A stretch of DNA of 64,000 nt from Gemmatimonas sp. (GCA_965279375.1 OZ257156.1:352001-416000), one strand, 5' to 3'; shown: positions 3,414-46,102, counted from the stretch's first letter. Notes: generated from the letters alone by a model not told the origin. A program made the numbers and translations.

Positions 3414-4202
3414 TCAGGTGCCGCCGTACCAGTCGTAGCCATTGTCGGTCCAGTAGCCGCCGTTCTTCTGCGCCATGAACGCAACGCGCGTGAGGTACTT
3501 GGTGTTCTTGTAACCAAGCTTCACGGGCGAGTGCAATCGCGCCGGCGCACCGTACGCTGGCGATAGGAGTTGCCCGTCCTTCGCATACACGACGAGCGTT
3601 TGCGGGTGCAACACGCTGTCGATATCCCAGCTCTCGTGGTAGCCGTCGTCGAACGACTGAAAGTCCACCACCTCGGCGCCGGGCAGCACGCCGGCCAGTT
3701 TTGCGATGGCATGCATCGGCACGCCGCGGAAACGCGCAATCGCGTTCCATCCTTCCACGCAGAAGTGATCGACGCGCTGCTCGACGTGCGACATGGCCAT
3801 CAGTGCGGGAAGATCGAGACGGAGCGGCGTGCGTACCATGCCCGTCACCTCGAGCGCCCACTCACCGCGCGCGGCGATGTCCCACGTGGGCAGCTGGCGC
3901 GAGATGAAATACGACGGGAAGCGCGCACCGGCCACAATGCCACTCGCCGACGCATGATCCATCGACGTATGACGGAACAACCAGCGTTCGACGGCTTCGT
4001 TCTTCTCTCCAGCGAACTTGAGCACCCGTTGCGCGCTATCCGGCCCGTTGGATCCGCACGCGGCCAGCAGCGTCGACGCCAGAGAGGCGGCACCGAGACG
4101 AAGGAACGATCGCCGTGACGTGATGTGCTCTCGCGATTCGAGTGACGCCACGACGCGATCGATCGCCTGACGCGCCATCCGCATTTCTGTACGCGAGGGC
4201 AT
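3414..4202 (-). CDS. Molybdopterin-dependent oxidoreductase, sulfite oxidase family (MsrP/YedY-like), Tat lipoprotein
   Basis: SRRSFLRL twin-arginine motif plus LAAC lipobox; Mo-ligand HFCVEGW; YGAPARL...KLGYKNTKY; GGYW. ATG overlaps the upstream stop (TGATG). Confidence 0.88.
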   Translation of the reverse strand: MPSRTEMRMARQAIDRVVASLESREHITSRRSFLRLGAASLASTLLAACGSNGPDSAQRVLKFAGEKNEAVERWLFRHTSMDHASASGIVAGARFPSYFISRQLPTWDIAARGEWALEVTGMVRTPLRLDLPALMAMSHVEQRVDHFCVEGWNAIARFRGVPMHAIAKLAGVLPGAEVVDFQSFDDGYHESWDIDSVLHPQTLVVYAKDGQLLSPAYGAPARLHSPVKLGYKNTKYLTRVAFMAQKNGGYWTDNGYDWYGGT

Positions 4203-4948
4203 CAGGGCGTCTCCGTCGTGGTGGGCACGGTGGCCGGCGATGAGGTACGTGGCTTGGGGAACATGCCTTGAAACGGGCGTGCGTTGCGCGCGATCGGCGA
4301 GAAGCGCTCGCTGTGCCCACCCGTGATCATGCTGCGCAGACTGTACGGATCGACGCTGATGACCATGAAGACGTGAACGACGGAGAGCAGTACCAGCGAC
4401 AGCATGCCCATGAAGTGCCAGTAGCGCGCCCACACGTAGCCGCCAAAGATGCTCGTCAGCCAGCCGAGCGTGACTGGCTTCCAGATCGCGATTCCCGAGA
4501 GCACGATCACCGCGCCGATGAACGGCATGATGAAGTAGGCGCCTTTCTGCAAGGCGTTGTGCTTGCCGTGCGGAGGATGGTCTTTGCGCTGATACAAGTA
4601 GAACCGGATCATCTCCCAGCTATCGCGCACGTCGCCGCGTCGCGGTACGAGATCGCGCCACTCACCGTGCAGATAGATGAAGCTCACGTACACAAGCCCC
4701 GTCGCGACGAGTACCCACATCATCGCGAAGTGCCACTCGCGCGCGCTGCCGAGGAAGTTTCCGAAGGTGAGCCAGACGGGGGCTGGTGTGCCTTCGAAGG
4801 GATAGCAGCAGAACGTCTCGCCCTTGCGATGGAACGATGGATAGGCGTTGAAGATGCGCAGGCCGCTGCCCACCATCAGCGTCAACGCGACGGCGTTGAG
4901 CCAATGCGTCACGCGTACAACCCAGTGATGCCTTGCGTGTGCGGCCAC
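4202..4948 (-). CDS. Cytochrome b/b6 (Ni/Fe-hydrogenase-type cytochrome b) membrane partner
   Basis: VRVTHWLNA, WHFAMMW, KHNALQK, WHF...VVHV heme-ligand His pattern, 4 TM. GTG start 4948 follows an AGGAG RBS (ORF track start 4987). Confidence 0.85.
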   Translation of the reverse strand: MAAHARHHWVVRVTHWLNAVALTLMVGSGLRIFNAYPSFHRKGETFCCYPFEGTPAPVWLTFGNFLGSAREWHFAMMWVLVATGLVYVSFIYLHGEWRDLVPRRGDVRDSWEMIRFYLYQRKDHPPHGKHNALQKGAYFIMPFIGAVIVLSGIAIWKPVTLGWLTSIFGGYVWARYWHFMGMLSLVLLSVVHVFMVISVDPYSLRSMITGGHSERFSPIARNARPFQGMFPKPRTSSPATVPTTTETP

Positions 4949-4949
4949 G

Positions 4950-5240
4950 CTAACGCTCCTCCGTTGGCGAGTCGTACGAGGGCGCATCGATCAGCGCACG
5001 CACGCGCGCGCGTACCACATCTGATGCTACCGTGTTGGGGCGCGCGTTGTGCATGAGATCGAGAAAAGCGCGCTCGAAGGCGAAGTGCGATGCGCAGTTG
5101 CTGTGGCAGACGCGCAGATGCTCGTCCACTGCCTGCACATCCACCGCCGAGAGTTGGCGATCCAGGTAGTCCCAGAGGAGACGCACAGTCTGCTCGCAGT
5201 CCAGCACCGGCGTTTCAGGTGAAGCCGATGAAATGGTCAT
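4950..5240 (-). CDS. Zinc-binding anti-sigma factor (zf-HC2/RsrA-like, soluble)
   Basis: DCEQTVRLLWDYLD...HLRVCHSNC; overlaps the ECF sigma stop by 4 nt. Confidence 0.85.
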   Translation of the reverse strand: MTISSASPETPVLDCEQTVRLLWDYLDRQLSAVDVQAVDEHLRVCHSNCASHFAFERAFLDLMHNARPNTVASDVVRARVRALIDAPSYDSPTEER

Positions 5241-5872
5241 GCGTGGTCGCGTGGTGAGGTGGAAGGATGCGTCGTGAAGAAACCAAGGTCGCGGGCGTGC
5301 TCGCGCAAACGTTCCTGCAACTGCCGCCGCGCGCGGAATAGTCGAGAGCGGATCGTGCCGACCGGTACATCGAGCATCGACGCTGCCTCGTCGTAGCTGT
5401 AGCCTTCCATGTCCACGAGGACCACCACCAATCGCGCCGGCTCTGCCAGCTGTGCGAGCGCGGCGGTGATGGCATCCGATGTACTCAGCGCATCGAACAT
5501 CGACGCCTCGCCGCTCGCTACGATCGCATTGTGCAGGCGCACCGTGGCCAACGTTTCGTCCGTCGGGTCATCCGAGAGCGACTCGTGGCGCTGCTCTCGC
5601 TCGTACGAACGCAGGAATGCATTCTTGCAGATCGTGAAGAGCCAGCGTCGCATGTCCGAGCCGTCCTTCCAAGTATGCCGACTCTTGAACGCCCGTAGAT
5701 ACGTTTCCTGCACGAGGTCGTCCGCTTCGTCTGGTGCGCGCGTCAATGACTGCGCAAAGCGCGCCACGGCGTCGAGACAACGCATGGCGTCCTCTTCAAA
5801 CGTTGCGGCCGTTGCACCAGTCGGCATCTGCAGATCGGCGTCGTGCCCAGCGTTGTGCGCAGCGTTATGCAT
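5237..5872 (-). CDS. ECF sigma-70 factor (SigR/SigH-like)
   Basis: Region 2 ADDLVQETYLRA...WLFTICKN; region 4 EGYSYDEAASMLDVPVGTIRSRLFRAR. Confidence 0.92.
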   Translation of the reverse strand: MHNAAHNAGHDADLQMPTGATAATFEEDAMRCLDAVARFAQSLTRAPDEADDLVQETYLRAFKSRHTWKDGSDMRRWLFTICKNAFLRSYEREQRHESLSDDPTDETLATVRLHNAIVASGEASMFDALSTSDAITAALAQLAEPARLVVVLVDMEGYSYDEAASMLDVPVGTIRSRLFRARRQLQERLREHARDLGFFTTHPSTSPRDHA

Positions 5873-5883
5873 GGAGCGCGAGG

Positions 5884-6453
5884 TCAGTTGGACGAGCGTT
5901 TCCCGACGGGCATCGCCTTGCGGACGGCCGCATCGATGTCCTGCTCCGGACCTACGCCGGTGTAGACGACCGTTCCCTTGGCATCCACGACGACAACATA
6001 CGAGGTGTGCGTGGCCTTGTAGGCTTTGTAGATGGCGCCGTCGCGATCGAACCCGTACGTGCCGGTCATCTGCTGCTGCGTGACGAAGGCCTGCTGGCGC
6101 TCCGGAGTCTGGTTCTGTGGCACGCCCACGCCGATGAACGCGACGTCCTTGCCGTACTTCGCGCGGGCGGCCGCCATCGCCGGCTCAAGCTTCTTGCACA
6201 ACGGGCACCACGTCGCCCAGAACTCGATCACCATCGGCTTCCTGCCGATGATCGTCCCGAGATCCATCGAGGAACCATCGAGCATCTCCATGGTGACCAC
6301 CGGCGCCTTCGTGCCGAGGTCGAGCCCCGCTTCCTGCGCTGAGGCGGTCCTCGTGGTAACGGTGCTGACGGCCAGCGCGAGCACGGATGCAGCCGCGGTG
6401 AGAATCACTCGACGCATGCTGCGTTGAGCCAACGACGTATTTTGAAACGGCAT
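5884..6453 (-). CDS. Exported TlpA/ResA-type thiol-disulfide oxidoreductase
   Basis: FWATWCPLC thioredoxin motif; signal peptide ending TASAQ. Confidence 0.9.
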   Translation of the reverse strand: MPFQNTSLAQRSMRRVILTAAASVLALAVSTVTTRTASAQEAGLDLGTKAPVVTMEMLDGSSMDLGTIIGRKPMVIEFWATWCPLCKKLEPAMAAARAKYGKDVAFIGVGVPQNQTPERQQAFVTQQQMTGTYGFDRDGAIYKAYKATHTSYVVVVDAKGTVVYTGVGPEQDIDAAVRKAMPVGKRSSN

Positions 6454-6523
6454 GAGGAAGCGCTCTCGAAGGATGGTGAAAAGTGTTGTGCGAGTGTGTG
6501 CGGCGAACCCGTTCAGACCAGCA

Positions 6524-7273
6524 TCAGAACAGCACTTGTCCTGCGCCAACCAGGTAGTACTCGGCGGCACCAATCATCAGCACGGCGAAGACGCGCTTGA
6601 CGTGCACCATCCATGCGCCGGGGCGCGGCAGTTGCACGGCGCCGCCAGCGGCCAGCCCGACGACTACCAGCAGGGAGCACATGCCGAGCGAGAAGACGAA
6701 GAGGTAAGCGAAGCCGAGGACTGCGCTCTTGGTGGCAGCCACCCAGGTGAGCAGCGTGGCCATGACCGGCGCACCACACGGTGCCGCGACCAGCCCCGAG
6801 GCGGCTCCCATCCCGAAGGCACCCAGCAGTCGTCCTCCGCCGCCCATGCCCGCTGCGCGCGCGAGGAGTGCGTGCGGTATCGGTACCGGGAGCACGTCGA
6901 GCATCATGAGGGCGAAGAGCAACAGCAGGTTGCCCATGACGATCAGCAACCATGGGTTCGTGCTGACGCCGCCGAAAAGCGTTCCGGTGAGCCCGGCCAG
7001 CAACCCGAGCGATGCATAGGCCATCGCGAGCCCTGTCACGTATGACAGCGTCAATGCGAGCACCCGCCCACGTGATCGCGCGATCGGTGCAGCTCCGATG
7101 CCAGCCAGGCCGCCCGCCCCCTGCCCCGACTGCGAACCAACCACGGCCGCCGTGATCGGGATCATCGGATAGATGCAGGGTGTGAGGCTGGTGAGCACGC
7201 CACCCAGAAAGACCAGCGGCACCGCGCTCGCGGGGCTCTGGGACAGCAGCGTGGTGACGTTGGGGAGCAGCAT
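6524..7273 (-). CDS. ccdA: CcdA/DsbD transmembrane electron transporter
   Basis: SLTPCIYPMIP and AAPCGAP redox-Cys motifs, about 6 TM helices. Confidence 0.88.
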   Translation of the reverse strand: MLLPNVTTLLSQSPASAVPLVFLGGVLTSLTPCIYPMIPITAAVVGSQSGQGAGGLAGIGAAPIARSRGRVLALTLSYVTGLAMAYASLGLLAGLTGTLFGGVSTNPWLLIVMGNLLLLFALMMLDVLPVPIPHALLARAAGMGGGGRLLGAFGMGAASGLVAAPCGAPVMATLLTWVAATKSAVLGFAYLFVFSLGMCSLLVVVGLAAGGAVQLPRPGAWMVHVKRVFAVLMIGAAEYYLVGAGQVLF

Positions 7274-11538: not shown

Positions 11539-11675
11539 GTAGCGCGCGACCGTACCGCGGCTCCTGGCGCGACGGCCATTCGGTTTTCGAGGGACGAGAC
11601 CCGAACCGGCAGTCCTTCCCGGGCAACGATGAGTTCGTTGTGCGGCCGATGCTCCGGGCGCGATAGTTTCTCGAC

Positions 11676-11706
11676 CGATGAGTTCGAACCGGGACCGGAG
11701 TCAAAG
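11676..11706 (+). promoter_or_regulatory. SigG/ECF56-type promoter (autoregulatory)
   Basis: CGATGA(11676-81)-N18-GTC(11700-02)AAAG about 50 nt upstream of the sigma ATG. A second CGATGAGTTCG at 11627-11637 lacks the GTC. Confidence 0.7.
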
Positions 11707-11753
11707 CCTTAACGACGCTCCCGCCACCTCCCAGACACTCGCCGACCGCCCGC

Positions 11754-12740
11754 ATGAATCCGATTGCCGTGCACGACTCCGTGCAGGATGCTGCGCTCGA
11801 AAGTCATCGCCCCGCACTGACTGGGCATTGCTATCGCATGCTGGGCTCCATCATGGATGCCGACGATGCGGTGCAAGAAACGATGCTGCGCGCGTGGCGT
11901 GCACGAGACCGTTTTGACGGTCGCGCCTCGCTCGGCACGTGGCTGTATCGCATTGCGACCAACGTCTGTCTCGATGCGCTCGCCGATCGTGCGCCGCGAC
12001 ATCGCCCGATCGAGACGGGACCAGTGGGCACCACGGAGGACACGCTCGTAGAAATGCCGCGCACCCATTGGCTGGAGCCCATTCCTGACGCGCGCGCGAT
12101 ACCCGCCGAGGGTGATCCGCATGAGCGAGCGGTCCTGCGCGAAAGCATCCGCCTGGCGTTCGTTGCAGCGCTGCAGAAGCTTCCGCCGCGCCAGCGCGCA
12201 GCTCTCATCCTGACGCAGGTGCTCAACTGGTCGGCGGCCGAAGTCGCCGAGTGTCTGGACATGTCGGTGGCGGCGGTGAACAGCGCACTTCAACGTGCCC
12301 GGGCGACTCTGGCCGACGCCCGCGTCGATGCGCAGCTCTCGCGGAAGTCGCCGTTCAGCCCCGTCGCTCTCTCACCCGAGCAGCAACTGCTCGTCGATCG
12401 GTTCGTGGCGGCATTCGAAGCGTATGATGTGCCGGCTCTCACAGCACTGTTACGCGAAGATGCCACGACCTCCATGCCACCGTTCGCCTTGTGGCTGCAA
12501 GGCCGAACAGACATTGGCGCGTGGCTCTTGGGACGAGGCATCGAATGCAAAGGCTCGCGTCTCGTTACCACAGCCGCGTGCGGCTCACCGGCGTTCGGTC
12601 AGTATCGCGATAACGGCAAGAAGCCGTGGGCGTTGATCGTGCTGGAGCTCGACGGCGATGAGATCGCGGCGATGAACTACTTCCTCGATACGGACACGCT
12701 GTTTCCGCAGTTCGGCCTGCCGGCGCAGCTCGTTTCCTAA
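11754..12740 (+). CDS. ECF sigma factor with SnoaL-like C-terminal extension (SigG/ECF56-like)
   Basis: [25 protein letters not shown], linker WLEPIPD, region 4 [11 protein letters not shown]-terminal [12 protein letters not shown]...MPP..LWLQG. Confidence 0.9.
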
Positions 12741-12803
12741 CTCGAGCACTATTCCGCTGGCATGCCCATCGTCTATCCGATCACTCTCCACCGGTATCCG
12801 CTC

Positions 12804-13211
12804 ATGGCTGCCTCCCGCAAACTCTTCGTCAACCTTCGCGTCAACGATCTCGCCCGGTCGATGGCGTTCTTCTCCGCGCTCGGATTCTCCTTCAACAAGC
12901 AGTTCACCGATGACAACGCGGCCTGCATGGTGGTCAGCGAAGAGAGCTACTTCATGCTGCTGACGGACGCCTTTTTCCGTCGCTTCACGACCAAGGAGCC
13001 AGTGGACACATCGAGGCACATTGAAGGAATGTTCGCTTTCTCCTGCGACAGCCGCGCCGAAGTGGACACGCTGATGGAGAAGGCGATGGCCGCGGGCGGT
13101 ACGCCGGCGATGCCGGTGCAGGACCATGGATTCATGTACGCGCACAGCTTTCACGATCTCGACGGGCATCACTGGGAAGTGCTGTGGATGGACCCGACGA
13201 CGATTCAGTAG
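12804..13211 (+). CDS. VOC family (glyoxalase/bleomycin resistance) protein
   Basis: LFVNLRVNDLARSMAFF..LGF, QDHGFMY, DLDGHHWE. Confidence 0.9.
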   Translation: MAASRKLFVNLRVNDLARSMAFFSALGFSFNKQFTDDNAACMVVSEESYFMLLTDAFFRRFTTKEPVDTSRHIEGMFAFSCDSRAEVDTLMEKAMAAGGTPAMPVQDHGFMYAHSFHDLDGHHWEVLWMDPTTIQ

Positions 13212-13285
13212 TATCGACCCACATCACCGGGGAGCAGCCTCGAAGGCGGCACTCGCACCGATCGCATGACGCGTAGATTCCGGCG

Positions 13286-13666
13286 ATGAAGCTCAATCTC
13301 CTGGTCGTGATCACCGCGGTCGTTTACGCGCTGCCCGGGCTAGTATTCACGTTCGCGCCGGACGAGGTGCTGCTGCGCCTCGGGCTCGCGGCAGCGCCGC
13401 CACTGCTCCACTGGCTGTTGGAGCTGCTGGGCGGCGCGCTGATGGGTCTGGCCATCATGAACGCCATGCAGCGCTACGCGATGGTGGGTGGCGTGTACGG
13501 CAGGCCGTTGCTCCTTGCCAATCTCACGCTGCTCTCCATTGGCGGACTCTCGAGCCTGCGACTGTGGCGCACCACGGGCGATCAGCGCATCCTGATCGCA
13601 GCGGTGATCTTGTGCGCGCTGCTCGCCGCCTACGGCCGTCTCCTGTTCAAGAGCCCCACGCCGTAG
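13286..13666 (+). CDS. Hypothetical 4-TM membrane protein
   Basis: 126 aa, four hydrophobic segments; TAGATT -10 six nt before the ATG. Confidence 0.7.
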   Translation: MKLNLLVVITAVVYALPGLVFTFAPDEVLLRLGLAAAPPLLHWLLELLGGALMGLAIMNAMQRYAMVGGVYGRPLLLANLTLLSIGGLSSLRLWRTTGDQRILIAAVILCALLAAYGRLLFKSPTP

Positions 13667-13678
13667 CGAACCTCCGGA

Positions 13679-14602
13679 TCAGTGAGCCTTGAGCCACTCG
13701 ATCAATAGTGGATTCACCACGTCGGTCCGTTCCATGTGCGGCAGGTGACCGGCGCGTTCGATCGGATGAAACTCGGCCTGCGGAATTCCGCGTCGCAGCT
13801 GTTCAGCGTTCTCGATCTTGACCGTCTGATCTTCCTTGCCCCAGATGAGCAGCGTGGGCTTTCCGGCCTTACCAGCGGCTGCATACAGCGAGTCGGCGCT
13901 GACCGATGCAGCCGCGATCCGCGTGCGCAGCAGCGAGCGCCCGAAGCCCTTGAACTGCATCTGCACGCGATAGCGATCTGCCCAGTCCGGCCACTTGGCG
14001 GGCTCCACGAAATCGCTGGCTTGACCGTCAGCCATAGTCGGCACCGCCAGCGCCTGCCACAGCAGCTCGCCCATCACCGGCAGCGTGAAGAAGGACGGCA
14101 CCCCGCCGATCGTGCCCGCCGCCGGATCTACCAACACATGCGACCGCACGCGCTCAGGATGGCGGCTCACAAAGGTGCCCGTGACCGGACCGCCGAAGGA
14201 GAGCCCGATCACATGCACCGAGTCACGCCAGCCGAGTGAATCGAGGACTCCGCTGAGCTGCCGATCGAAGAGCCCGAGGTCGTACTCGGCGTCGGGGCGG
14301 TCGCTATAGCCGCGGCCGTACGTGTCGTAGCGCGCTACGTGAAAGCCGGCGTTGGTGAGTGCGACGTACGTGGAGTCCCAGATGTAGGCGGGCACGGAGA
14401 AGCCGTGCACCAGCACCACCTTGGCCCCGCTGTCAGGGCCGCCCACTTCAAGGTGCGTGATGCCGTCGGACAGCGAGACGAACCGGCCCGCGACACCTGT
14501 TCGTGCGGCGGCATCGAGCGTGCGCGATTCAGGGTCGCGTGACTTCAGGTAGAACAGCGCGCCGGCAATCAGAGCAACGAACAGCAGAGCGAGACGGCGC
14601 AT
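13679..14602 (-). CDS. Alpha/beta hydrolase with N-terminal anchor
   Basis: HGF oxyanion motif, GLSFGG nucleophile elbow, WGKED, AGH. Confidence 0.9.
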   Translation of the reverse strand: MRRLALLFVALIAGALFYLKSRDPESRTLDAAARTGVAGRFVSLSDGITHLEVGGPDSGAKVVLVHGFSVPAYIWDSTYVALTNAGFHVARYDTYGRGYSDRPDAEYDLGLFDRQLSGVLDSLGWRDSVHVIGLSFGGPVTGTFVSRHPERVRSHVLVDPAAGTIGGVPSFFTLPVMGELLWQALAVPTMADGQASDFVEPAKWPDWADRYRVQMQFKGFGRSLLRTRIAAASVSADSLYAAAGKAGKPTLLIWGKEDQTVKIENAEQLRRGIPQAEFHPIERAGHLPHMERTDVVNPLLIEWLKAH

Positions 14603-14614
14603 GGACTTTTCGCA

Positions 14615-15070
14615 TCAGAGGGTTGTGGGCGGTGCCGGGATCGGCAGCTCTCCGGTGATGCGTAAAGTATCCTCCTGATGCGTTTCGCTGCGCTCGTCGG
14701 CGGGAATGATGCCCGCGTCGTTGAGCATCAGCCCCACCGCATCCGGAACCATCGCCGGCCACATGAAGATGCCATTGATGCGCACGATCGCGCGCGGCGT
14801 GCGTCCGGAGCCTGCGTATTTGCGTCGCGCCCAGAGCTCGTACACCATCGTCAGCAGGCCGCCGAACGCCGCGAACACACTCCACGTGACCACGGCCTCG
14901 CGCCACGGAAGGTCCACCAGCATCCACACCAGCACCGCGTAGCTGAGCACCATGCCCATGATGCCCATGCCACGACGCAGTGCCGCGTTGAGCGCCACGC
15001 ACGCGGTGGTCCACAGGAGGATGCCGAACAACACGATGGCCCACATGAAATTGACGTAGTAGAACGTCAT
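14615..15070 (-). CDS. Hypothetical membrane protein
   Basis: Start MTFYYVNF after GGAG RBS; 3 TM segments; ends 12 nt before the hydrolase start. Confidence 0.65.
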   Translation of the reverse strand: MTFYYVNFMWAIVLFGILLWTTACVALNAALRRGMGIMGMVLSYAVLVWMLVDLPWREAVVTWSVFAAFGGLLTMVYELWARRKYAGSGRTPRAIVRINGIFMWPAMVPDAVGLMLNDAGIIPADERSETHQEDTLRITGELPIPAPPTTL

Positions 15071-15222
15071 CGGGGCTCCGGCGCAGCAGATGGGAGAGAT
15101 CGTCGCACAGGCAGGAGCGTGCGACGCGACTGACGACCAGCAAGTGGCGACCGGCGCATGATGCTTCGCGCATGACGACACTTGAGAGTGCAGCGCGTGG
15201 ACGGCTTACGCCAGCACCGAAG

Positions 15223-16389
15223 TCAGTGCGCTGCTTCCCACTCGAGCATGCCACCGTCGAGCGACCAGACGCGAGCAAAACCGGACCTTTGCATCTGATT
15301 TACGGCGGATGCGCTGCGTTTCCCGCTCCGGCAGAACACCACGAACTCCTGCGACGCATCCAGCGTCGGCAAGACATCGCCAAGCGTGCCGAGTGGGATG
15401 AGCTTCGCGCTGTCGATGCCCGAGACCGCTGTTTCGTGTGGTTCACGAACGTCGATGAGTTGCAGGGCATCGCCACGTGCGAGGCGCGACGCGAGCGAGG
15501 CCACGCTGATCACCGGAACATCGCTCGTTGGCGCCGCCGCCGAGAGCGCCGGCGTGCCGCAGAACTCATCGTAATCGATGAGCGCGGTGATCGTACGCGT
15601 GCCGCAGGCGGGGCATTGTGGATCGCGCGATAGCTGCACGGTACGGAATTGCATCGTCAGCGTATCGACCATGAGCAAACGTCCAGCGAGTGTGTCGCCG
15701 ATTCCCAGAATGAGCTTGATCGTTTCGATTGCCTGCATCGTACCGATGAGGCCGGGCAACACGCCAAGCACGCCACCCTCTGCACAGCTGGGCACTGTGC
15801 CCGGCGGTGGCGGCTCCGGGTAGAGGCAGCGGTAGCATGGCCCGGTTGCCGTCGCAAACACCGATGCCTGTCCCTCGAACTGATAGATCGAGCCATGCAC
15901 GTTGGGGATGCCAAGCAACACACACGCATCGTTGACGAGATAGCGCGTGGCAAAATTGTCGGTGCCGTCTACCACCACGTCGTACCTACGCAGAATGTCG
16001 AGTGCGTTCGCCAAGGTCAGCCACGCCGCATGCGTTTCCACCTGCACGTGCGGGTTGATGCCATGCAAGCGCTCCCGTGCCGCGTCGAGCTTGGGACGAC
16101 CAACGTCCGTCGTGCTGTAGAGCAGCTGCCGTTGCAGGTTGGTCACGTCGACCGTGTCCTGGTCCACGAGGCCGATCGTGCCGACGCCGGCCGCCGCGAG
16201 GTAGAGTGCCGTGGGCGAGCCCAACCCGCCCGCGCCCACCAGCAGCACTCGCGCCGCCTTGAGACGCTGCTGGCCGGCCACCCCGACATTCGGGAGCGTC
16301 AGGTGCCTGCTGTAGCGAACGCGCTCCTCGGCGGAGAGCGTCTGCGCAGCACTACGGTTGAGGCTGTCGCTGGGAGCGTTGGTGTCCAC
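15223..16389 (-). CDS. moeB: MoeB/MoeZ-type E1 adenylyltransferase with C-terminal rhodanese domain
   Basis: RYSRH, GAGGLGS, NLQRQ, PCYRC and CPAC Zn motifs, SCAEGGVLG, rhodanese CRSGKRS. Confidence 0.93.
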   Translation of the reverse strand: MDTNAPSDSLNRSAAQTLSAEERVRYSRHLTLPNVGVAGQQRLKAARVLLVGAGGLGSPTALYLAAAGVGTIGLVDQDTVDVTNLQRQLLYSTTDVGRPKLDAARERLHGINPHVQVETHAAWLTLANALDILRRYDVVVDGTDNFATRYLVNDACVLLGIPNVHGSIYQFEGQASVFATATGPCYRCLYPEPPPPGTVPSCAEGGVLGVLPGLIGTMQAIETIKLILGIGDTLAGRLLMVDTLTMQFRTVQLSRDPQCPACGTRTITALIDYDEFCGTPALSAAAPTSDVPVISVASLASRLARGDALQLIDVREPHETAVSGIDSAKLIPLGTLGDVLPTLDASQEFVVFCRSGKRSASAVNQMQRSGFARVWSLDGGMLEWEAAH

Positions 16390-16419
16390 GATGATTTTCC
16401 GGTCGAAGCAGAGTCCAAC
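16389..16419 (+). promoter_or_regulatory. Second SigG/ECF56-type promoter, for the BNR-Ubl operon
   Basis: CGATGA(16389-94)-N18-GTC(16413-15)CAAC; same spacing as 11676 and the same GAGTCNAA core. Confidence 0.7.
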
Positions 16420-16507
16420 CCCCGTGCAGTTGCCGCCCGGCGGCGATTGTAGCGGTTCCGCGTAGGAACCGTATACTTGCCAACTCTGAGCCTACGAGGA
16501 GCGACAG

Positions 16508-17623
16508 ATGCGTGGAGTCCGTGTACTGGTCGGTACGCGCAAGGGTGCGTTCATACTGACATCGGATGAAGGGCGGCAGAAGTGGCACGTCGATGGTCCC
16601 CACTTCCCCGGGTGGGAGATGTATCACATCAACGGCTCGCCCGTCGATCCCAATCGGCTCTACGCGTCACAGTCCAACGGGTGGTTCGGGCAGATCATTC
16701 AGCGCTCCGATGATGGCGGCAAGTCGTGGACGGCGATGGACAATGCTTTCACGTACGACGGCATCCCCGGCACGCACATGTGGTATGACGGAACCCCGCA
16801 CCCGTGGGAGTTCAAGCGCGTCTGGCATCTCGAGCCGTCGCCGATCGATCGCGATGTGGTGTACGCCGGCGTGGAAGATGCCGCGCTGTTCAAGTCCACC
16901 GACGGTGGCGCGAGCTGGCACGAGCTATCCGGACTTCGTCAGCACGGCACGGGTGCACAGTGGCAACCGGGCGCCGGTGGCATGTGCCTGCACACCATCG
17001 TGCTCGATCCCAGCAACGCGGATCGCATCGTGATCGCCATTTCCGCCGCGGGTGCCTTCCGCAGTGAAGACGGTGGCAAGACGTGGATGCCCATCAACAA
17101 GGGGCTGCGCTCCGGAGGCATCCCCGACGAAGACGCCGAAGTGGGACACTGCGTCCATCGCATCGCCATGCATCCATCCAATCCGCAGCGCCTCTTCATG
17201 CAGAAGCATTGGGATGTCATGCGCAGTGATGACGGCGGTGATCATTGGTACGAGATCAGTGGCAACCTCCCCACCGACTTCGGCTTCCCCATTCAGGTTC
17301 ACGCGCACGAGCCTGAGACCGTCTACGTCGTGCCAATCACGAGCGACCACCATCACTTCCCACCCGATGGCGCACTGCGGGTGTATCGCAGTCGTAGCGG
17401 CGGCAACGAATGGGAAGCGCTGGGCCCCGGACTGCCCACGCGCGACTGCTACGTGAACGTGTTGCGCGATGCGATGGCGGTGGACACACTCGATTCGTGC
17501 GGTGTGTACTTCGGCACCACCGGCGGCCAGGTCTACGTCTCCAGCGACTCCGGCGACAACTGGATGCCCATCGTGCACGATCTGCCGGCGGTAATGTCCG
17601 TCGAAGTGCAAACGCTGTCGTGA
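16508..17623 (+). CDS. Cytoplasmic BNR/Asp-box beta-propeller protein (often annotated exo-alpha-sialidase)
   Basis: Repeated SxDGGxxW Asp-boxes; no signal peptide; His/Cys motifs GGMCLH, GHCVH, QKH; GAGGAG RBS. Confidence 0.88.
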
Positions 17624-17625
17624 GC

Positions 17626-17928
17626 ATGCGCACCGTTCGCGTTGTCCTGCCGGCGCCGCTGCGCGTGTTGTCGAGCGTCGGCAGCGAGATCGCGGTGGAC
17701 GTTGCGGGTGAGATCACGCAGCGCACGGTGGTCGATGCCATCGAGCAACGCTATCCGATGTTGCTCGGCACCATCCGCGATCGCAGCACGAAGCAGCGGC
17801 GCGCGTTCGTACGCTTCTTCGCCTGCGAACGCGACCTGTCGCTCGAGTCGCCCGATACGGCCCTTCCGTCGCGCGTCGCCGACGGCGAGGAGCCGCTGCT
17901 GATCGTGGGCGCAATGGCGGGCGGATAG
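17626..17928 (+). CDS. MoaD/ThiS/CysO-like ubiquitin-fold sulfur carrier ending in Gly-Gly
   Basis: 100 aa MRTVRVVLPAPLR...RYPML..TIRD...VRFF...GAMAGG-stop; starts 2 nt after the BNR stop. Confidence 0.88.
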   Translation: MRTVRVVLPAPLRVLSSVGSEIAVDVAGEITQRTVVDAIEQRYPMLLGTIRDRSTKQRRAFVRFFACERDLSLESPDTALPSRVADGEEPLLIVGAMAGG

Positions 17929-17934
17929 CGCACT

Positions 17935-17980
17935 GCGTCTGCCGCATCGCGTCTGCCGCGTCGCGTCTGCCGCATCGCGT
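17935..17980. repeat. 14-bp tandem repeat (3.3 copies)
   Basis: gcgtctgccgcatc / gcgtctgccgcgtc / gcgtctgccgcatc / gcgt. Confidence 0.85.
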
Positions 17981-45340: not shown

Positions 45341-46102
45341 TTATCCCGGGCCTCCGCCCGGCAGGTGCGCAAACACTTTGCCCATGAAACCGAACATGTC
45401 CTGGTCGGGCGTGTTCGGCAGCTTCTGCGCCAACGCGGCCCCTTCGTGCTGGTACATCGTGCGCACGTTCTGGGCGATCTCGCGATTGCCCCCCGTGAAC
45501 TCGTTCACCAGCCCACGCCAACGCTCGGCGAGTGCCAGCAGCTCGGGATCGTTCGTTGCGGTGCCCTTGGCCATGTGCTCGCGCACGGCGGGGATGATCT
45601 CGCCCCACTCCGCGGCCACCTGATCCATCCGCTCCTGACTCACCGACTGTCGGCGCTGCTCCAGCTCCGCGAGTTGCTCGGTCGTGAAATACTTCTCCAT
45701 GATTTGCATGTCCTCGATGATGCGATAGAGATCTTCCGTGGAGATCGTCTTCGCCGTGTCCAAGTGATGCGCCAGCCGTCGCAACCGATCCGCGAGCCGC
45801 TGTTGCAGAGCGATCTGCATCTGAATGCGGTCGAGGTGCAGTTGAATCACGCGCTGTGCGGTGAGATCCGGTTGGTCCAGCAGCTGCCGGATCTCGTCGA
45901 GTGGAATACCGGTCATGCGCAACGACTGGATCTGTTGCAATCGCGACACGTCTGCATGCGCATACAGCCGATGTCCCGACGCCGTCCGCTGCGAGGGATG
46001 CAACAGACCGATCTCGTCGTAGTGATGCAGCGTGCGAACTGACAGCCCCGTCCGACGGGCCAACACGCCAACCTTGATGGGGACTGACCCTTCCGCTGAC
46101 AT
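45341..46102 (-). CDS. MerR-family regulator with TipAS/AlbA-like drug-binding domain
   Basis: VRTLHHYDEIGLL.PS.RT.SGHRLY HTH; C-terminal MEKYFT.EQL...W...LAERW..L...FTGG; AAGGAG RBS. Confidence 0.88.
   Translation of the reverse strand: MSAEGSVPIKVGVLARRTGLSVRTLHHYDEIGLLHPSQRTASGHRLYAHADVSRLQQIQSLRMTGIPLDEIRQLLDQPDLTAQRVIQLHLDRIQMQIALQQRLADRLRRLAHHLDTAKTISTEDLYRIIEDMQIMEKYFTTEQLAELEQRRQSVSQERMDQVAAEWGEIIPAVREHMAKGTATNDPELLALAERWRGLVNEFTGGNREIAQNVRTMYQHEGAALAQKLPNTPDQDMFGFMGKVFAHLPGGGPG

Follow-up and report, generated by a model that had tools for sequence, protein, structure and literature searches.

Here we analyse a 64,000-nucleotide stretch of DNA from Gemmatimonas sp. (GCA_965279375.1, OZ257156.1:352001-416000), referred to below as the window, in whose numbering positions are given unless another locus is named. 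Our focus is a two-gene operon encoding a beta-propeller and a ubiquitin-like protein (Ubl), together with an extracytoplasmic function (ECF) sigma factor encoded upstream of it. A first-pass annotation had proposed that this sigma factor induces both the operon and a gene for a VOC protein through a shared promoter motif, and that a divergently encoded E1-rhodanese is available to activate the Ubl.

Gene content of the locus

The sigma factor gene (11754..12740, + strand) encodes a protein of 328 residues that matches TIGR02960 (386.6 bits) and PRK08241 (429.8 bits), both above cut-off; we take these families to correspond to SigG, and classify the protein as ECF56/SigG-type. It has a sigma2 and sigma4 core and a SnoaL-like C-terminal extension. 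The SnoaL_2 match is weak (E 3e-4) and under the cut-off, and both the length of the protein and its full-length match to TIGR02960 agree with the presence of such an extension. The sequence MPPF lies at residue 241, as in the MPP(F/Y/L) type of ECF56, and the ECF41 motifs NPDKL and WLPEP are absent (motif definitions from the accessible portions of bioRxiv 2020.01.30.927608 and PMC7730460). ECF56 factors are recorded in Gemmatimonadetes at low frequency in the part of the PMC7826278 supplement available to us. Downstream lies a gene for a VOC (glyoxalase/bleomycin-resistance) protein (12804..13211, +; PF00903), predicted to be transcribed from the sigma promoter. Thus, profile matches bear out the gene identities assigned by the first-pass annotation, a SnoaL-tailed ECF sigma factor followed by a VOC protein. 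The next three genes (13286..15070), which encode two hydrophobic proteins without family and one alpha/beta hydrolase, have no motif of their own and are not conserved near the propeller-Ubl pair; they are treated here as bystanders.

Beyond these genes, a MoeB/MoeZ-type E1-rhodanese gene (15223..16389, -) diverges from the pair. Its product contains ThiF and Rhodanese domains with intact catalytic motifs. The propeller gene (16508..17623, +) encodes a cytoplasmic, seven-bladed Asp-box (BNR) propeller of 371 residues (model pLDDT 93.8). It is followed by the Ubl gene (17620..17928, +), which starts either at an ATG at 17626 or at a GTG in the same frame (17620), which overlaps the stop codon of the propeller gene, and whose product is a beta-grasp protein ending in AMAGG (pLDDT 94.2). 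A 14-base tandem repeat of 3.3 copies lies right after the Ubl stop, at 17935-17980.

Two promoter-like sites with identical spacing

As originally noted, the window contains two copies of CGATGA-N18-GTC with the same spacing, at 11676-11702 and 16389-16415. Each is on the + strand; these are the sole matches, and they share the core GAGTCNAA. The first site (-35 CGATGA at 11676-11681, -10 GTC at 11700-11702) lies 78 bases upstream of the sigma start codon, with a predicted transcription start near 11711. The second lies 119 bases upstream of the propeller start codon, is conserved in relatives, and would direct a start near 16424. The M. tuberculosis SigG consensus given in the first pass, CGATGA(N18)GTCNNTA, and its glyoxalase-type targets agree with the accessible text of PMC3776920. 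The NNTA tail is absent from both sites here, where the -10 tail is NAA. In Streptomyces, ECF56 sites were sought with the string CGATGAGTT-N15-GTC (bioRxiv 2020.01.30.927608, in the part available). The site at 11676 fits this string exactly, as one of four matches in the genome, and the site at 16389 has one mismatch, T for G at position 7. A degenerate second copy (11627..11653, +) contains CGATGAGTT with GCT replacing GTC, and is probably weak or inactive. A further promoter-like copy above 11676, CGAGGG-N18-GTC, begins at 11588, so that degenerate copies span 11588-11653.

The -35 element of the site at 16389 abuts the moeB GTG start on the other strand and overlaps the likely moeB ribosome-binding region (16387-16400); hence, the propeller and moeB promoters may face each other and interfere. 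The predicted 5' leader of the operon (16424..16507, +) can form two strong hairpins (-37.4 kcal/mol, z -3.2), and none of 200 shuffled sequences was as stable. A scan for sigma-70 promoters and terminators returned nothing relevant; a TATACT sequence is retained in the window at about 16473. In five loci of the same genus that lack the ECF56 motif (L097, L098, L100, L114 and L115), a housekeeping-like sequence, WTCGAC-N17/18-TANNNT, can be seen by eye some 30-55 bases upstream of the propeller gene.

Conservation of the promoter and its co-occurrence with the sigma factor

To the 5' side of orthologous propeller genes, we compiled 135 distinct upstream regions (propeller identity at least 60%, leader at least 150 bases) and sought the motif within 250 bases. 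CGATGA-N18-GTC is present in 22 of these regions. Control spacers of 14-17 and 19-22 bases each gave 0 or 1 match, and neither the next 250 bases nor the antisense strand gave any. The three bases that follow CGATGA, which were outside the search pattern, are predominantly G (15/22), T (20/22) and T (17/22), matching the published consensus. Named carriers of the motif belong to Gemmatimonadota, Acidobacteriota, Actinomycetota and Dormiibacterota.

The motif also tracks with the sigma factor. All 19 motif-bearing genomes that were tested encode it: five of the same genus (G000 among them), five of a broad set, and nine actinobacteria, one of which has the sigma gene only as a fragment. Among genomes without the motif, 14 of 85 encode the sigma factor (1/18 relatives; 3/50 of the broad set, in which 50 of 73 candidates were tested; and 10/17 actinobacteria), and the motif was found in none of the 71 genomes that lack it. 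A few of these genomes are unpublished. G063 is one of the 19, supplies one of the nine training sites described below, and is the sole Dormiibacterota case; G084 and G089 belong to the 71; G156 belongs to the 14 and also served as a control in the JAB comparison below; and G199 contributes a distant propeller that has a Ubl. None of these genomes is essential to any conclusion.

We next consider the genome as a whole. A matrix built from nine sites of other genomes ranks the sigma site first (30.8 bits), the propeller site second (30.4 bits) and a site before a DoxX_2 gene third (27.6 bits). All three are intergenic, and the next score is 20.3. Because six of the training sites came from close kin, the scan was rerun with ten actinobacterial sites; the propeller, sigma and DoxX sites then rank 1, 3 and 4, with one coding site between. 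This third site precedes the DoxX_2 gene at C1:869,597, in the stretch G000:C1:869,196-870,061 (L131:7200-8062, - strand). A second DoxX-like gene lies just upstream of it and a rhodanese-family sulfurtransferase gene 2 kb downstream. Using a stricter pattern in four sigma-bearing relatives, we found 12 sites, compared to none with reversed controls and none in G032, a relative without the sigma factor. Four of these sites precede propeller genes, three VOC genes and one a DoxX orthologue, making 8 of the 12. Of the other four, three lie ahead of genes for a PF06983, a DUF1801 and a hexapeptide-repeat protein, and one has no clear gene after it. In three relatives, the VOC gene has its own ECF56 site, located between sigma and VOC. 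In the window, the site instead precedes the sigma gene, which suggests autoregulation in this genome; we therefore predict, on sequence grounds, that the site at 11676 is an autoregulatory promoter. At one locus, L043, the promoter, propeller, Ubl and ECF56 sigma genes are found in a single run.

Several observations weigh against this regulatory link, or at least against its generality. The bare pattern occurs in the window at a chance level (2 observed versus 1.78 expected, with 56 of 100 shuffles reaching 2) and has 97 matches genome-wide; its significance lies in position and conservation. The motif is absent upstream of 113 of the 135 orthologues, and it is missing 5' of the propeller gene in 14 genomes that do encode the sigma factor. 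The tally of sigma and motif draws on searches with varying thresholds, on many incomplete genomes, and on kin that are not independent. When the actinobacterial matrix was used with wrong spacers, top scores were comparable (25.6 and 24.3), so no single site is proven by its score. Finally, one ECF56 member, SigG1, uses a different motif, according to the portion of PMC7730460 at hand.

It could thus be argued that the two motifs arose by chance or as by-products of the moeB ribosome-binding region, and that the sigma factor does not control the operon. The chance-level frequency of the bare pattern and the overlap of the site at 16389 with the moeB start region are what such an account would predict. 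We regard it as highly improbable, however, since the motif is also present in actinobacterial and acidobacterial loci that lack moeB, is seen with a single spacer, and is missing from all 71 of the sigma-less genomes. What was expected in the first pass, conservation of the motif upstream of orthologous pairs, holds for the 22 regions and their single spacer length, but the promoter is optional, and ECF56 control is one wiring among several. On a FastTree phylogeny of 132 propellers, the ECF56 label requires 14 changes, implying that this wiring has been gained or lost many times. An ECF42-type site, TGTCG-N18-CGWC, precedes 11 of the 135 orthologues, with 5 antisense matches. Where the ECF56-type sites do occur, they combine the consensus, the 18-base spacer, a position upstream of genes and a sigma-bearing genome. 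Motif position, sigma tracking, the matrix scan and the targets in relatives all support the view that this sigma factor controls the propeller-Ubl operon as well as the sigma-VOC unit. Hence, the ECF56/SigG-type protein very probably drives a regulon of sigma-VOC, propeller-Ubl and DoxX genes via CGATGA-N18-GTC.

A conserved His/Cys cluster in the propeller

The propeller model closely matches PDB 3B7F (Z 51.1, root-mean-square deviation (rmsd) 2.0 over 356 residues, 35% identity), and fold searches revealed no other characterised close relative. ESM Atlas returned solely clusters of the same family. Residues H162, H217, H234, Q232, S179, F260 and R320 are invariant across 172 of 172 propellers, C215 is present in 171, and K12 is invariant as well. 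In the model, these residues map to neighbouring blades, either where an inner strand begins or in the loop that comes after strand two. The protein has no hydrophobic N-terminus, no signal peptide and no RIP motif. These data are in line with the first-pass description of a cytoplasmic, His/Cys-rich propeller. The arrangement suggests a site in which three histidines and a Cys or Asp bind a metal, with basic residues placed to hold a carboxylate.

Databases often label these proteins exo-alpha-sialidases, and the propeller might accordingly be a glycoside hydrolase (GH) with an incidental Ubl. The Asp-box repeats, the automatic names and the GH74 enzymes that come after 3B7F in the fold search are compatible with such an activity. 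GH33 sialidases have six blades and carry a RIP motif, GH74 xyloglucanases have two propellers in tandem, and such enzymes are usually exported. Here, the RIP motif and a signal peptide are both lacking, there is one seven-bladed propeller as in 3B7F, and hallmarks of GH33 and GH74 are not seen. Moreover, the invariant core is built of His and Cys rather than acidic residues, the pairing with the Ubl is obligate, and 3B7F is itself listed with its family as "not known" (PMC2716378). A glycosidase is, in our judgement, scarcely credible.

More distant propellers (27-47% identity) offer another perspective. In 10 of 35, a CysO-like Ubl is encoded adjacently, and 25 of 35 keep the His/Cys cluster with no Ubl alongside. 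The site therefore need not serve a Ubl. One distant clade (L217-L219) has the ECF56 motif and no Ubl. Most of the distant propellers from one actinobacterial order (L175-L192) have neither an adjacent Ubl nor an ECF56 motif, and retain the His/Cys cluster. In another case, P0086, a ThiS-family Ubl is fused ahead of a distant propeller; two of the four cluster members are long, both on short contigs, making this a weak case. Could the propeller be a stand-alone, small-molecule metalloenzyme that the Ubl assists as a chaperone or a non-covalently bound subunit, without activation of the Gly-Gly end? The Ubl-less relatives with intact core residues fit this idea, as does the adjacency of an E1 gene in only 4 of 80 loci. 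Against it, Gly-Gly is kept in all 78 complete Ubls, and the distant propellers that do have such a neighbour use a different, CysO-like Ubl that likewise ends in Gly-Gly. BexX borrows CysO, and orphan propellers could similarly borrow a general carrier. We consider a stand-alone enzyme unlikely.

The ubiquitin-like protein and its obligate partner

The annotation of a Gly-Gly-ending Ubl after the propeller is upheld by the beta-grasp model and by the C-terminus itself. The closest folds are SAMP1 (Z 11.9, rmsd 2.0, 87 residues aligned) and CysO (Z 10.7, rmsd 2.1, 85 aligned), and the top matches also include SAMP3 and Urm1 (Z 11.9, 9.4 and 8.3 for the group of SAMP1/SAMP3, Urm1 and TtuB). At the sequence level, no Pfam match was obtained, the cut-off of PF02597 (ThiS/MoaD) was not reached, and a PDB sequence search returned nothing significant. 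Orthologous Ubls match PF02597 weakly in 6 of 40 cases (best E 0.0014). Six surface residues, R51, R58, R59, R63, F64 and D70, are invariant in 40 of 40. The Gly-Gly sequence is retained by each of the 78 complete Ubls: 68 end with it, and 10 extend beyond it in a tail. Taken together, the beta-grasp fold, the C-terminal Gly-Gly and the presence of an E1-rhodanese in the genome are among the features expected of a sulfur carrier.

The Ubl gene follows the propeller gene in all 80 of the best genome loci, which come from many phyla and in which propeller identity is 72-84%. The same holds for every one of the 119 close loci for which both flanks are available. Among named loci, the closest to share this arrangement belong to Gemmatimonadaceae. 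Recurrent neighbours in the 80 loci include YciI (15), an ECF42-type sigma factor (10) and DoxX (8); from reading of the sequences, HxlR, VOC, SRPBCC and ArsR proteins also recur. In three loci, the Ubl is read through in frame past Gly-Gly, into an ECF56 sigma factor (L043:1962-3182), an AAA-like ATPase (L048:7107-8861) or a YjbR protein (L060:1200-1883). These could be either real fusions or stops lost in the assemblies.

The principal alternative for function accepts the same ECF56 control and holds that the Ubl is a protein tag in the style of SAMP, Urm1 and TtuB, linked by E1 alone to lysines of damaged proteins, with the propeller reading or removing the tag. SAMP, Urm1 and TtuB are activated by E1 only, and are known to be conjugated under oxidative stress with the E1 alone. 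The prominence of SAMP1, SAMP3 and Urm1 among fold matches, the unusually conserved Ubl surface, and the read-throughs into sigma, AAA-like and YjbR proteins all favour tagging. Nevertheless, no E2, E3 or JAB is encoded in the window, nor does the operon have an E2 or JAB partner. JAB searches of the genome gave only one match, RadC-like by reading of its sequence. In the accessible part of PMC1779556, bacterial ubiquitination operon types contain E1, E2 and JAB genes. Moreover, an invariant one-to-one partner better suits carrier-acceptor pairs. All 10 genomes with tailed Ubls encode a separate JAB, versus 36 of 60 controls, though the comparison is confounded, as all 10 are Acidobacteriota, where JAB is common. 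A propeller would be unneeded as a protease there, and with the same reservation we do not favour a role for it as a Ubl-trimming protease. Overall, tagging has a minor but appreciable chance of being correct.

The E1-rhodanese and cofactor genes

The divergent MoeB has no CGATGA-N18-GTC on its strand in the window. It adjoins the pair in 4 of 80 loci overall, and is divergent from it in 10 of 10 loci of the same genus and in 0 of 13 of other families. Its orthologue is the sole MoeB found in nine same-genus genomes in which the pair was not found (seven of the nine were inspected, and no propeller was nearby) and in five pair-bearing genomes (G015, G019, G022, G027 and G032), all with MoaE. 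These distributions indicate a general E1 shared with MoaD, and they lead us to reject the idea of a dedicated enzyme, or "two E1s for two Ubls". The present genome has a second E1-rhodanese. Thus, the proposal that the divergent MoeB is available to activate the Ubl survives in part: a general E1 could serve the Ubl, but this one is outside the predicted regulon and not dedicated to the Ubl.

Among the 48 window proteins scanned, none matched the MoaE, ThiG, CysM or JAB families, as first reported (CysM was not searched genome-wide), and so none of the partners MoaE, ThiG and CysM of known carrier-acceptor pathways is encoded with the Ubl in the window. A separate, canonical moaA-moaE-moaD operon, whose existence the first pass had left to be checked, is present elsewhere in the genome, and ThiG had no match in the genome. 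Both findings support the earlier suggestion of a role apart from cofactor synthesis. If the operon instead provided a reserve route to molybdenum cofactor or another cofactor, the Ubl acting as a second MoaD, the adjacency of MoeB in 10 of 10 same-genus loci and the presence of MoaE in 57 of 61 related genomes would be readily understood. On the other hand, the canonical operon already exists, the 80 loci show no recurrent cofactor gene next to the pair, the Ubl fails the ThiS/MoaD profile, and the regulon neighbours are stress genes. These considerations make a cofactor role very unlikely.

Elsewhere in the window, a run of genes on the - strand (3417-7273) encodes DsbD-type, redoxin, ECF sigma, zinc-finger anti-sigma, cytochrome b and molybdopterin oxidoreductase proteins, and presumably forms a redox repair unit of the MsrPQ type that has a sigma factor to itself. 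A MerR regulator with a TipAS antibiotic-recognition domain is encoded at 45344-46102 (-).

Discussion

We favour the reading, at a probability of roughly 0.55, that the Ubl is a CysO/SAMP-like sulfur carrier and the propeller a metal-binding acceptor enzyme, within a detoxification regulon. E1-rhodanese sulfur charging is established for MoaD and CysO. In the model we propose, the SnoaL-tailed ECF56 sigma factor would act as a one-component sensor, its SnoaL domain detecting a ligand or a product of damage. The activated sigma would transcribe its own gene and that of VOC, the propeller-Ubl operon, and the distant DoxX gene. A general MoeB-rhodanese, here a neighbour, would adenylate the Gly-Gly end of the Ubl and form a thiocarboxylate. 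The propeller would be the dedicated acceptor, with H162, H217, H234 and C215 coordinating a metal at one face and basic residues holding the Ubl tail. The sulfur could then serve to modify or inactivate some reactive small molecule, with detoxification proteins of the VOC, DoxX, YciI and DinB types acting alongside. Sensing by SnoaL has been proposed for ECF56 factors, with signal and purpose stated as unknown, in the available sections of bioRxiv 2020.01.30.927608.

There are caveats to this reading. The distant propellers that keep the cluster with no Ubl nearby, described above, count against it. The putative metal site is based on conservation and blade position rather than measured distances. 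Additionally, loss of sigG in M. tuberculosis brought no increased sensitivity to methylglyoxal or DNA damage in the part of PMC3776920 available; the term "detoxification" therefore rests on family names. A complex prediction with propeller, Ubl and zinc (score 0.02, mark 0.32) speaks neither for nor against the proposed interaction.

The sigma factor and its promoter are further examples of a type already known. M. tuberculosis SigG (PMC3776920) and S. venezuelae SVEN_4562 (bioRxiv 2020.01.30.927608), as far as covered in the portions available, are likewise SnoaL-tailed MPP(F/Y/L) sigma factors that use CGATGA-N18-GTC and control a small glyoxalase/VOC regulon. The present case differs in its Gemmatimonadaceae-like genome, outside Actinobacteria, in its predicted autoregulation, in its NAA rather than NNTA tail, and in the inclusion of a propeller-Ubl operon, which is not named in the accessible text of either source. 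Ten targets are given there for SVEN_4562, one of them called a "hydrolase", and this could be a propeller homologue. The ECF42 regulon of RpoE10 in Sinorhizobium meliloti (PMC6180224, in part) similarly involves a C-terminally extended sigma factor and targets of the YciI, VOC and SRPBCC types, although the sigma and motif differ from those here; the matching TGTCG-N18-CGWC site upstream of the 11 orthologues is a weaker signal, given its 5 antisense matches, and this genome is not wired that way.

The pair represents a previously undescribed form of carrier-acceptor system. Like CysO-CysM, CysO-BexX (PDB 4N6E), MoaD-MoaE and ThiS-ThiG, it consists of a Gly-Gly beta-grasp carrier that would share a MoeZ-type E1-rhodanese and a tightly linked partner gene. 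Unlike in those systems, the partner here is a stress-sigma-controlled Asp-box propeller that carries a His/Cys cluster and is unrelated to their acceptors. The dual carrier-modifiers SAMP1/SAMP3, Urm1 and TtuB, which include the nearest fold, have no fixed propeller partner. The structure 3B7F (Reut_B4987 of Ralstonia eutropha JMP134) keeps the three histidines and R320. It belongs to a distant subfamily, has Asp at the position of C215, and is a structural-genomics entry without assigned function. We found no paper on the pair, or on its link to ECF56, in the searchable literature, which excludes most subscription papers, and no description of it in the portions available of PMC9205884, PMC7776599 (text and 8 supplements) and PMC1779556.

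In sum, the regulatory link is well supported, and its target is strongly conserved. More speculatively, the propeller may found a class of metalloenzymes that use the Ubl thiocarboxylate as a protein-borne thiol to neutralise toxins or repair damage, an inducible route parallel to glutathione and mycothiol that would have been recruited repeatedly by ligand-sensing sigma factors (ECF56 and ECF42) across phyla. We hold this broader idea only tentatively, as a doubtful extension of the sulfur-carrier reading; if it is true, the substrate would give a lead to what the SnoaL domain senses. The ECF56 link offers an induction handle, as a truncated sigma factor should switch the pair on. If the propeller is indeed a sulfur acceptor, it would represent a new enzyme fold in ubiquitin-like sulfur chemistry, which would extend from cofactor synthesis to stress defence, and many "exo-alpha-sialidase" labels would be corrected. 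The purpose of ECF56 sigma factors and the function of a widely conserved gene pair are two questions that are joined at this locus.

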